This document shows positions 31,601 through 32,994 of a DNA stretch of 64,000 nt, piece by piece. Origin of the DNA: Candidatus Babelota bacterium (GTDB lineage Bacteria; Babelota; Babeliae; Babelales; Vermiphilaceae). The stretch is from contig SOKE01000016.1 in the NCBI GenBank assembly GCA_004375875.1, positions 4,423 through 68,422 on the forward strand. Direction: 5' to 3'. The position numbers and the translations under genes are program-made. Below the pieces are notes generated by a model. That model was not told the origin of the DNA, did no database searches, and saw only the letters and a program-made list of their open reading frames with translations. Each line of letters starts with the position of its first letter. Positions within the stretch are counted from its first letter, which is position 1.

Positions 31601-32994
31601 AAAAAAAGATTATGGAAACGATTCTTAATTTCCTTAAGCGTCGACGTATCACCAGGCCAAACTTTGCTATGCAAATCCTTGAACGCTTCATCTTCTGAAT
31701 AAGAGCGATCTTGCGCTAACGTCATTGCTATAGTTGGCTGTAGAACATAACCAGATGGTTGAATAAGACTTAACTGCAATCCTTTTATCTTCTTAAACAA
31801 CTGGTAGTGCTCTTCAGTAAATATCTGACCTTGTTCAGCAAAAATCTCACCGCTTTCAGGATCAACTACATCGCCCCCAAAAACACGATTAAGTAAGCTC
31901 GTTTTTTTTAACACCAATTCTTTGATACCAGCTCTTTGCAAACGATTAATAATCTCTTTAGTAATTCTTTTGCCAAGTAGCGTCTTTTCATATGTTTCAG
32001 GGAGCATGCCACGCTCAATACGCTGTCCGATTAAGTTATCATCAACCTTAAGCAAAAATAACCCATTTTTTACTTCTACACGATCAAAGAGATAGAAATA
32101 AGAAATAATTTCATCACGTGAAATGCCAAGAGCTTGTAAGAAAGTAGTAACAAAAACTTTCTTTTTCTTGTCAATGCGAACATAGCAATAATCATTACTA
32201 TCAAACTCAAAATCAAGCCAAGAACCACGCATTGGGATAATCCGTGAAAGATAATATGGCCGTCCACGATAATCTTTTATTTTTTTGCTTTGAGAAAAAA
32301 TCACACCAGGTGATCGCTGCAGCTGACTAACAACAACACGATCAACACCATTAATCAAAAAAGTACCTAAGTTGCCTAATTTAAATCGGCCATGCTCTTC
32401 ATACAAATCAACCATAACAGGAACATCAGCAAAAAAGATATCCTGTTCCTTTATATCACGAATTACCTTATTTCCCTCTTCATCTTTTGCCCATGTAATT
32501 AACTGAATTCTAATTCGTAATGGCATAGAAAAGGATTGTTCAGTTGAACGGCATTCTTCTAATGTCATAGGAACATGAACAATAACACGTGATAAACAAT
32601 GAGAACAAACTTTATAGGAGGCAGTATTTTTTTTACAATAGGGACATTGTTGATCATGAACAAGATATGAACAACCAGATTTTTTGCAAGCAGAACAAGT
32701 CCATTGATAACGATTTGTTATTCCTTTAAGCAGACCACATGCACAACTCCAGTTTCCCAACTCATAGCTTACATATTCAAGAGAAAGTTTATCTTCATAT
32801 TCTATCGGAAAAATATCACGTAATACTTTCTCTAGACCAATAGGTTTTCGTTCTTCTGGCAAATAATCAAGCTGTACAAAATCGTTAAATGATAACGATT
32901 GTATCTCTATTAGATTAGGAACAGGAACAATATCTTTGATCTTTTCAAAAGATTTTCGAACATTACGCTTGCTTACATGCAAGTCAAACATCAA
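28669..32994 (-). CDS. rpoB: DNA-directed RNA polymerase subunit beta (1441 aa, with lineage-specific insertions)
   Basis: [75 protein letters not shown]. An AAGGAG RBS is present upstream. The TTG at 32994 or the ATG at 32991 could be the start. Confidence 0.95.

Follow-up and report, generated by a model that had tools for sequence, protein, structure and literature searches.

What is a compact cysteine-rich segment doing in the N-terminal region of the beta subunit of a bacterial RNA polymerase? The question is raised by the rpoB gene in a 64,000-nucleotide stretch of contig SOKE01000016.1 from a Candidatus Babelota bacterium (this whole stretch is the window in what follows), in which a first-pass annotation made from the letters alone had marked an insertion of about 62 residues as resembling zinc ribbons. 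We find that the segment is a real domain under purifying selection, that it is conserved across Dependentiae, that it has homologs in RpoB of a second lineage and in a third family of proteins, and that its predicted structure is a confident fold of zinc-ribbon-like character. It is probably a two-zinc module, the metal being read from the patterns of its cysteine knuckles. The anatomy of this module is much more certain than its function, and a contact with DNA or with a partner is speculative.

A net insertion in the beta1-lobe

Residues are numbered throughout from the TTG at 32994, and the argument starts from the gene and the segment within it:

28669..32994, minus strand: rpoB, RNA polymerase beta subunit, an open reading frame (ORF) translated as 1441 aa from TTG, with six Pfam RNA_pol_Rpb2 domains.

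32569..32754, minus strand: the 62-residue cysteine-rich insertion, aa 81-142, a gap in all PDB alignments, conserved, and modeled by AlphaFold2 (AF2) with a predicted local distance difference test score (pLDDT) of 86-97.

The six RNA_pol_Rpb2 domains are recognized at E values down to 3e-124, beta subunits in PDB are matched at E values down to 6e-48, and the gene neighborhood keeps the usual nusG-rplKAJL-rpoBC order; an exact sequence look-up of the window RpoB returned no record. The codon adjacent to the TTG start of the listed ORF is an ATG (32991), and relatives start at the equivalent Met; this ATG, one codon downstream, is the probable true start, with which residue numbers would shift by -1. 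The overall length of 1441 aa, which had been listed with the insertion as an unusual feature, comes mostly from ordinary proteobacterial-type insertions elsewhere in the protein (Rpb2_6 spans 562 residues vs a 373-position model).

When the N-terminal 292 residues were compared with every PDB chain by phmmer, 53 beta subunits matched, each aligning in two blocks, and the segment is covered by none of them (0/53). In the best match, query residues 7-79 correspond to target residues 6-79 and query residues 144-291 to target residues 85-221, an alignment in which about 5 residues in known beta subunits stand opposite 64 residues here. It follows from the two-block alignments, with the segment left uncovered, that the segment is an insertion with a net length of about 60 residues, at a site equivalent to E. 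coli beta ~80-84. The first-pass annotation was right about the position and the translation, which is exactly as quoted, and its impression that such a module is not familiar from bacterial beta agrees with its absence in every matched PDB beta subunit (n=53). It had placed the module on the beta lobe side, whereas the insertion lies in the beta1-lobe (the Rpb2 protrusion) and not in the beta2 "lobe", between strand 2 of the sheet (aa 70-79) and the helix TLEECR. Of the 16 cysteines in the 1441-residue protein, nine fall inside this 62-residue segment (hypergeometric P = 2.5e-9), laid out as one CxC (84/86), three CxxC (100/103, 117/120, and 130/133), and C108.

Conservation and selection in Dependentiae

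Queried with residues 54-233, a set of 5.8 billion proteins yielded about 75 fragments sharing at least 50% identity, with source names Dependentiae, Babeliales, and TM6, and the insertion is present, in full or reduced form, in every one of these that spans the site. The matches without it are all at 45% identity or less and all from other phyla. When one genome was scanned for each GTDB species, the module proved to be encoded in at least 269 of these genomes, and the best 80 are all Dependentiae, including Vermiphilus pyriformis and one complete genome. Across the window and these best 80, a set of 81 genomes, the cysteines C84, C86, C100, C103, C117, C120, C130, and C133 are invariant (81/81), as are the non-cysteine residues W82, G91, R95, Y96, W98, L111, A125, Y127, and R136. 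Conservation in relatives had been proposed as a check on the annotation, and with the insertion kept across Dependentiae and its eight cysteines invariant in the 81 genomes no alignment to the contrary was obtained. Nonsynonymous divergence (pN) within the module is 0.25 against a synonymous divergence (pS) of 0.78, the latter saturated, and module pN is a little higher than that of the flanks (0.14-0.17).

Conservation across independent assemblies also excludes an artefact. An assembly error, a frameshift, or a fragment of foreign DNA would find an argument in the neighboring rpoC, which has one anomalous in-frame stop, but hundreds of genomes and metagenomes obtained independently have the same segment in frame, the reading frame here is unbroken, and the guanine-plus-cytosine (GC) content of the insertion is 34% vs 32-35% in the flanks, so that we consider such an origin vanishingly improbable. 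An intein or mobile-element origin was ruled out for a segment this small with a GC content like that of its flanks, flanking repeats not having been searched for.

Several RpoB fragments of 160-300 aa (P0002, P0005, P0020, and P0025) were called on Dependentiae contigs of 0.25-1.4 Mb, and out-of-frame tails end three of them (P0005, P0020, and P0025) as well as P0001 and P0009 on shorter contigs. The fragments with such tails look like assembly frameshift errors rather than true truncations.

Predicted fold and likeness to the beta' zinc-binding domain

In an AF2 model of residues 1-300 built from 47 sequences, the module has a pLDDT of 95-97 over most of its length and of 86 for residues 111-120, with short strands on either side of each knuckle and a single short helix at 92-95; modeled alone, it has a mean pLDDT of 88. 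Structure prediction had been suggested as a further check, and the segment is indeed predicted to fold, at high confidence. A Foldseek search of PDB with the 300-aa model found RpoB structures only. The insert-only model gave nothing significant (best E = 0.17), and its non-significant neighbors are nearly all zinc ribbons or zinc knuckles, namely TFIIE-alpha, MCM, LapB, Rpb12/RpoP, and the zinc modules of sirtuins and adenylate kinases. Pfam on the insert alone likewise gave zinc-ribbon matches below threshold (Zn_ribbon_3 at 15.5 bits vs a cut-off of 27, DZR_2 at 14.6 vs 27), and Zn_Ribbon_1 reached 23.5 vs a cut-off of 25 in P0148, a fragment of the Aminicenantia type described below. The pattern itself, with CxC, CxxC, CPxC, and CxxC knuckles flanked by short strands, is that of a zinc ribbon. 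A remnant of an HNH/His-Me endonuclease was ruled out, as H113, H132, and H140 vary among the 81 genomes.

The more specific likeness is to the zinc-binding domain (ZBD) at the N-terminus of beta', whose cysteines in E. coli are C70, C72, C85, and C88. Aligned by hhalign, the module profile and the ZBD profile match with a probability of 91%. If the inner part of the module is removed in silico, knuckles 1+4 match the whole ZBD with a probability of 95.5%, a score of 36.9, and E = 1.6e-8, while knuckles 1+2 score 29.9; over such module comparisons, probabilities of 92-95% and E values from 1.6e-8 to 5e-7 were obtained. In a control in which the cysteine columns of the ZBD were fixed and the others shuffled, scores were 11.6 +/- 3.5 with a maximum of 23.2, and 0 of 150 shuffles reached the observed value. 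Since these shuffles score far lower, the likeness rests on more than cysteines. A common origin of the module and the beta' ZBD is suggestive only, as judged from profiles.

Four knuckles and two candidate metal sites

The annotation had described the nine cysteines correctly as one CxC and three CxxC pairs plus C108. Only eight of them are ligand candidates, since the ninth varies. The five elements, with their putative place in the module, are these:

32737..32745, minus strand: knuckle 1, C84-x-C86, putative N-terminal half of an outer site, after invariant W82; 81/81 genomes and 27/27 diverse fragments.

32686..32697, minus strand: knuckle 2, C100-xx-C103, putative first half of an inner site; 81/81 best-matching genomes.

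32671..32673, minus strand: C108, the non-conserved ninth cysteine; C in 73/81 genomes, else V, T, or N.

32635..32646, minus strand: knuckle 3, C117-xx-C120, putative second half of the inner site; 81/81 genomes.

32596..32607, minus strand: knuckle 4, C130-xx-C133, putative C-terminal half of the outer site, then invariant R136; invariant in all sequences examined.

At the position of C108, the fragments also show V, I, S, H, T, G, and M, and this residue is probably not a metal ligand. Knuckles 2 and 3 are lost together in eight divergent fragments (P0015, P0032, P0033, P0039, P0042, P0049, P0059, and P0105), by cysteine substitution or by deletion, and all eight keep knuckles 1 and 4. Knuckle 1, which aligns with the CxC of the beta' ZBD, is thus kept even in variants without the inner site. 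By flank similarity these variants fall in at least 4-5 separate neighborhoods, in each of which the nearest relatives have the full module, and the joint loss looks recurrent.

Nested pairing of the knuckles is favored because knuckles 2 and 3 are lost jointly while 1 and 4 are retained. The eight cysteines most likely form two nested Cys4 sites, an outer one of C84/C86 with C130/C133 and an inner one of C100/C103 with C117/C120, and we favor this arrangement clearly over the other. The other would use the same eight ligands in sequence, as tandem ribbons A (C84, C86, C100, and C103), a CxC...CxxC ribbon like the beta' ZBD, and B (C117, C120, C130, and C133), a compact CPxC...CxxC ribbon. Two sets of alignments speak for this sequential pairing and so against the nested one. 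First, hhalign places knuckles 1-2 on the whole beta' ZBD, and these knuckles have the CxC-12/13-CxxC spacing of that domain, with 13 residues here and 12 in Aminicenantia and in E. coli beta'. Second, Pfam ribbon models treat knuckles 3+4 as a single ribbon both in the window module (Zn_ribbon_3 and DZR_2 over residues 115-137) and in P0148 (Zn_Ribbon_1). On the other hand, sequential ribbons would each have lost one knuckle (2 and 3, respectively) jointly in at least 4-5 lineages while knuckles 1 and 4 stayed invariant, and the 1+4 construct scores higher against the ZBD than 1+2 (36.9 vs 29.9). Nesting also has a precedent in the Cys-rich domain of DnaJ, in which repeats 1+4, on the outside, and repeats 2+3, on the inside, bind one zinc each, although the DnaJ structure 1exk is a weak match only. 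We regard sequential pairing as a minority possibility. Of the earlier suggestion that the spacing is that of one or two zinc ribbons, the zinc-ribbon-like character holds, whereas two ribbons in tandem give way to a pairing that is probably nested.

Relatives outside Dependentiae

A profile of the module found 49 matches among 1.84 billion representative proteins, and apart from a few multi-stretch ones these fall in three groups: RpoB of Dependentiae, RpoB with a longer module, and proteins of 1180-1325 aa. The multi-stretch matches, in the unrelated large proteins P0106, P0112, and P0136, were set aside; in P0106 and P0136 the match is confined to the beginning of the profile, which is SWxCTAGTLTGN-like, and in P0112 to one CxxC stretch.

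The second group has a longer four-knuckle version at the same site in RpoB, YSIGNWECKCGKLKGVENSR..CxxCG..CPxCG..CxxCG, and this was present in all 122 full-length relatives retrieved (122/122), whose source names are Aminicenantes, Aminicenantia, and Acidobacteriota:

aa ~75-146 in P0150, P0152, and P0154-P0273: RpoB module of Aminicenantia/Acidobacteriota, homologous, longer, and nearly neutral.

The charge of this module is +0.3. A further subtype (…GLHHLR…) is seen in P0138, P0141, P0144, and P0147-P0149. The earlier suggestion of a lineage-specific module holds in that the module is conserved within its lineage, but it is not peculiar to one genome, and it recurs in Aminicenantia RpoB and in the third group, treated below as fusions. 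A position of TM6 near Acidobacteria was weakly supported in earlier work (PMC4378268). The shared insertion could be an informative rare genomic change linking Dependentiae and Acidobacteriota and is a candidate signature indel for this debated placement; transfer is the alternative to shared descent.

Position on the polymerase and a second insertion

The beta1-lobe corresponds to the Rpb2 protrusion and is situated near the upstream side of the transcription bubble (PMC4593161). Four antiparallel strands form a sheet at the core of the lobe, and its edge strand 4 bears the IKE motif, the binding site for the RIDs of Mfd (TRCF) and CarD (PMC3001067). The window RpoB retains an intact IKE motif (RDIKEQ) next to the insertion, and in the AF2 model the insertion exits the C-terminal end of strand 2 (aa 70-79). 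The same lobe carries a smaller addition:

32371..32406, minus strand: second lineage-specific insertion, 12 residues, aa 197-208, a 12-residue gap vs PDB beta subunits, conserved in 81 genomes.

This second insertion is flanked by the conserved motifs PxM(T/V)D (here PVMVD) and GTFxINGxxRV, just upstream of the Rif N-cluster strand, and is predicted to be a beta-hairpin with strands at 197-200 and 203-206 that exits the C-terminal end of strand 4. It is present in the third group of proteins and absent in Aminicenantia RpoB. Strands 2 and 4 are parallel in direction, so both insertions leave the sheet at one and the same end, and from this topology the hairpin probably packs against the zinc module.

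What the module might do

The explanation that we put forward, and to which we give about an even chance, is that of a zinc-stabilized knob that contacts upstream or fork DNA or a factor bound there. It is prompted by the location of the module, its likeness to the ZBD, and its basic surface in Dependentiae. In the 81 Dependentiae genomes the module has a charge of +7.4, with values from +3 to +10, and its N-terminal flank one of -5.5; among the conserved residues at the surface of the module most are basic (R95, K104, K105, R110, K122, and R136). In this proposal a lineage-specific, metal-stabilized mini-domain would have been inserted in the beta1-lobe (the Rpb2 "protrusion"). Its outer site (C84, C86, C130, and C133), similar to the N-terminal ZBD of beta', would clasp the base of the insertion and be indispensable, whereas the inner zinc ribbon (C100, C103, C117, and C120) would form a dispensable tip. 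The module and the 12-residue hairpin, set at the same end of the beta1 sheet, would together make a rigid knob on the pincer beside the upstream bubble. This basic knob would then give the polymerase an extra, built-in contact with upstream or fork DNA or with a partner bound there, and the contact would stabilize initiation or elongation complexes, an analogue in cis of the factors that act on the beta1-lobe in trans, such as CarD.

Several observations weigh against this proposal. The Pfam zinc-ribbon models stay below threshold (15.5 bits vs 27), and the module profile run with HMMER against PDB sequences found no similar solved structure (best E = 0.76) and did not recover the beta' ZBD. 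The basic charge is not common to the Aminicenantia modules, as their value of +0.3 shows, and in Dependentiae it could simply mirror the Lys-rich proteome of an AT-rich genome. The pairing of the sites, the metal, the function, and the position and orientation of the module relative to DNA are all deductions.

If it is not nucleic acid that the module meets, it could be a docking platform for a lineage-specific protein partner, which might be an unknown regulator, an RID protein of the CarD/Mfd type, or a domain of sigma. TRCF and CarD are known to dock on the beta1-lobe, the IKE motif beside the insertion is intact, the near-neutral Aminicenantia modules argue against general polyanion binding, and the third group of proteins, which are catalytically dead, keep the module, the clamp helices, and the ZBD, all of them surfaces for interaction and not for catalysis. 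Against docking stand the mostly basic conserved surface in Dependentiae and the lack of any identified candidate partner, and we think it unlikely.

A more modest explanation is that of a tolerated structural passenger, kept only since its removal would destabilize the beta1-lobe, with neither a ligand nor a regulatory role. The module evolves somewhat faster than its flanks (pN/pS 0.32 vs 0.17-0.23, amino-acid identity 64% vs 74-79%), the inner ribbon decays without loss of the gene, and many lineage-specific insertions of RNA polymerase have subtle or unknown roles. A passenger would hardly account, however, for the invariance of the non-ligand surface residues R95, Y96, W98, and R136 in 81 genomes, for the persistence of the module in two phyla and a third protein family, or for the co-occurrence of a conserved companion hairpin, and we rate it quite unlikely.

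The Cys4 sites might instead act as a switch that senses redox state or metal, or as a rubredoxin-like center that binds iron, with effects on transcription when oxidation or metal loss occurs in an intracellular parasite faced with the oxidants of its host. Such sites can bind iron or release zinc on oxidation, sequence cannot separate zinc from iron, and the rubredoxin-type metal site of LapB and that of HypA are among the weak fold neighbors. Nothing points to this switch specifically, though, and Aminicenantia, which are not known as intracellular parasites, keep all four knuckles; we take it to be very improbable.

Beta-beta' fusions that carry the module

The module also led us to a rare family of inactivated beta-beta' fusions paired with STAND NTPases, the third group of profile matches. 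In these proteins of 1180-1325 aa the module lies at about residues 165-250. Their N-terminus is beta1-like (FLQLD..IG..VL..FP) and includes the second hairpin insertion, and they also hold part of the Rpb2_6 region and the C-terminus of beta, together with the beta' N-terminal half, which has its own ZBD and clamp helices. None of these proteins has the NADFDGD motif; in P0121 the stretch in its place is presumably WGWDLLGK, judged by eye against E. coli beta'. By their sequences, these proteins are catalytically dead fusions of beta and beta'. They are rare, with eight close homologs in 5.8 billion proteins, and are annotated as "hypothetical" in Streptomyces; the L081 gene is one of Streptomyces chartreusis. 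The genes whose surroundings were read lie outside the window:

L081, 8712-13759; L082, 6053-10993; L164, 1461-6719; L165, 4635-9561: fusion genes.

In each of the four contexts (4/4) the fusion gene lies directly downstream of a gene for a 354-471 aa STAND NTPase (NACHT/AAA_16, Avs1b-like); in L165/L166 a further ORF of 119 aa, overlapping the NTPase gene at its end, has been called between the two. Genes nearby include integrase, transposase, pPIWI_RE, Mrr, and CHAT. The fusion family had no PADLOC match, and literature searches found no publication on a pseudo-RNA polymerase paired with STAND. These fusions, paired with STAND NTPases, may be a new kind of immune sensor.

It is tempting to join these observations. 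The module would then be an ancient copy of the beta' ZBD that serves as a second clamp for nucleic acid or factors on the opposite pincer, shared by descent between Dependentiae and Aminicenantia/Acidobacteriota as a rare genomic change, and would also mark dead beta-beta' "pseudo-polymerases", always beside a STAND NTPase in contexts like defense islands, as possible RNA polymerase mimics that sense phage factors. We hold this combination, taken as a whole, to be quite unlikely.

An in-frame stop in rpoC

The neighboring gene has an anomaly of its own:

28347..28349, minus strand: in-frame TAG in rpoC, at about codon 111, right after the beta' ZBD.

This TAG divides rpoC into an N-terminal ORF of 110 aa, with the beta' zinc-binding domain, and a remainder of 1247 aa. 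Nine relatives have a Leu codon at the position (CTG, TTG, CTT, CTA, or TTA). Recoding of TAG in this genome was ruled out, as TAG ends 5 of 49 long ORFs in the window and only rpoC is interrupted, and an exact DNA search of metagenomes with the TAG region gave no match. The TAG is likely a T-to-A single-base error or variant (TTG to TAG), with a real split or read-through as a possible alternative.

Comparison with known systems

Until now, bacterial beta has been regarded as free of metal, with insertions of BEAN/SBHM type at few sites, and a two-zinc module would add both a site and a type of domain. It would place a ZBD-like knob by the upstream fork, where CarD and Mfd act, and it opens a way to test how the enzymes of the poorly studied Dependentiae and Aminicenantia differ from model RNA polymerases. 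A search of the full-text literature, with the insertion tables of Lane & Darst 2010 and Iyer & Aravind 2012 outside the comparison, brought up no account of a zinc module in bacterial beta or in Dependentiae/TM6, Babela, or Aminicenantes.

Among zinc domains of the polymerase itself, the beta' ZBD is a close counterpart. The two share the motif logic W/Y-x-C-x-C-G-K-[YL]-K ... [IV]-T-C-x-x-C-G-x-x-V, and both would be small basic zinc knobs on a pincer of RNA polymerase near upstream nucleic acid. Unlike the ZBD, the module belongs to beta, lies on the opposite pincer, and has what appears to be a second, inner ribbon between its two knuckles, and HMMER sees no link between them. The zinc site of archaeal and eukaryotic Rpb2 resembles the module as a Cys4 site in the second-largest subunit, but that site belongs to the C-terminal clamp, whereas the module is N-terminal, in the protrusion (aa 81-142 of 1441), at a non-homologous position.

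Outside beta and beta', the zinc ribbons of archaea and eukaryotes (TFIIE-alpha, Rpb12/RpoP, Elf1, and those of TFIIS/TFIIB type) are alike in having CxxC knuckles at the turns of beta-hairpins and are the top neighbors of the module, yet at non-significant values (Foldseek E = 0.17, HMMER E = 0.76), and they are separate subunits or factors whereas the module is fused into beta. The Cys-rich domain of DnaJ (1exk, a weak sequence neighbor at E = 1.4 by HMMER) likewise packs four cysteine knuckles into one short segment, with a nested topology that we infer here from co-loss. It differs in its CxxCxGxG repeats, as no GxG follows the knuckles of the module and the first of these is CxC, and there is no detectable homology.

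The module resembles SI1/SI2 of E. coli and the BEAN domains in that it is a domain inserted in frame into a surface loop of one of the universal beta domains, occurs in certain lineages only, and is conserved within these. Absent from all 53 solved beta subunits, it is encoded in at least 269 Dependentiae species genomes and 122/122 Aminicenantia-like RpoB proteins, which is the distribution of a lineage-specific insertion. A recent catalogue of beta and beta' insertions lists five lineage-specific sites in beta, which lie in uD2, uD3, uD5, and uD4 and none in uD1, calls most such domains BEAN, and nowhere mentions zinc (Alvarez-Carreno et al. 2024, PMC11515920). Unlike the BEAN/SBHM domains, the module is of Cys4 type, has zinc ribbons as its only fold neighbors, and sits in uD1 (the beta1-lobe), outside the five catalogued sites. 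By our own assignment of its class, it would thus add a new site and a new fold class to the known lineage-specific insertions of RNA polymerase.

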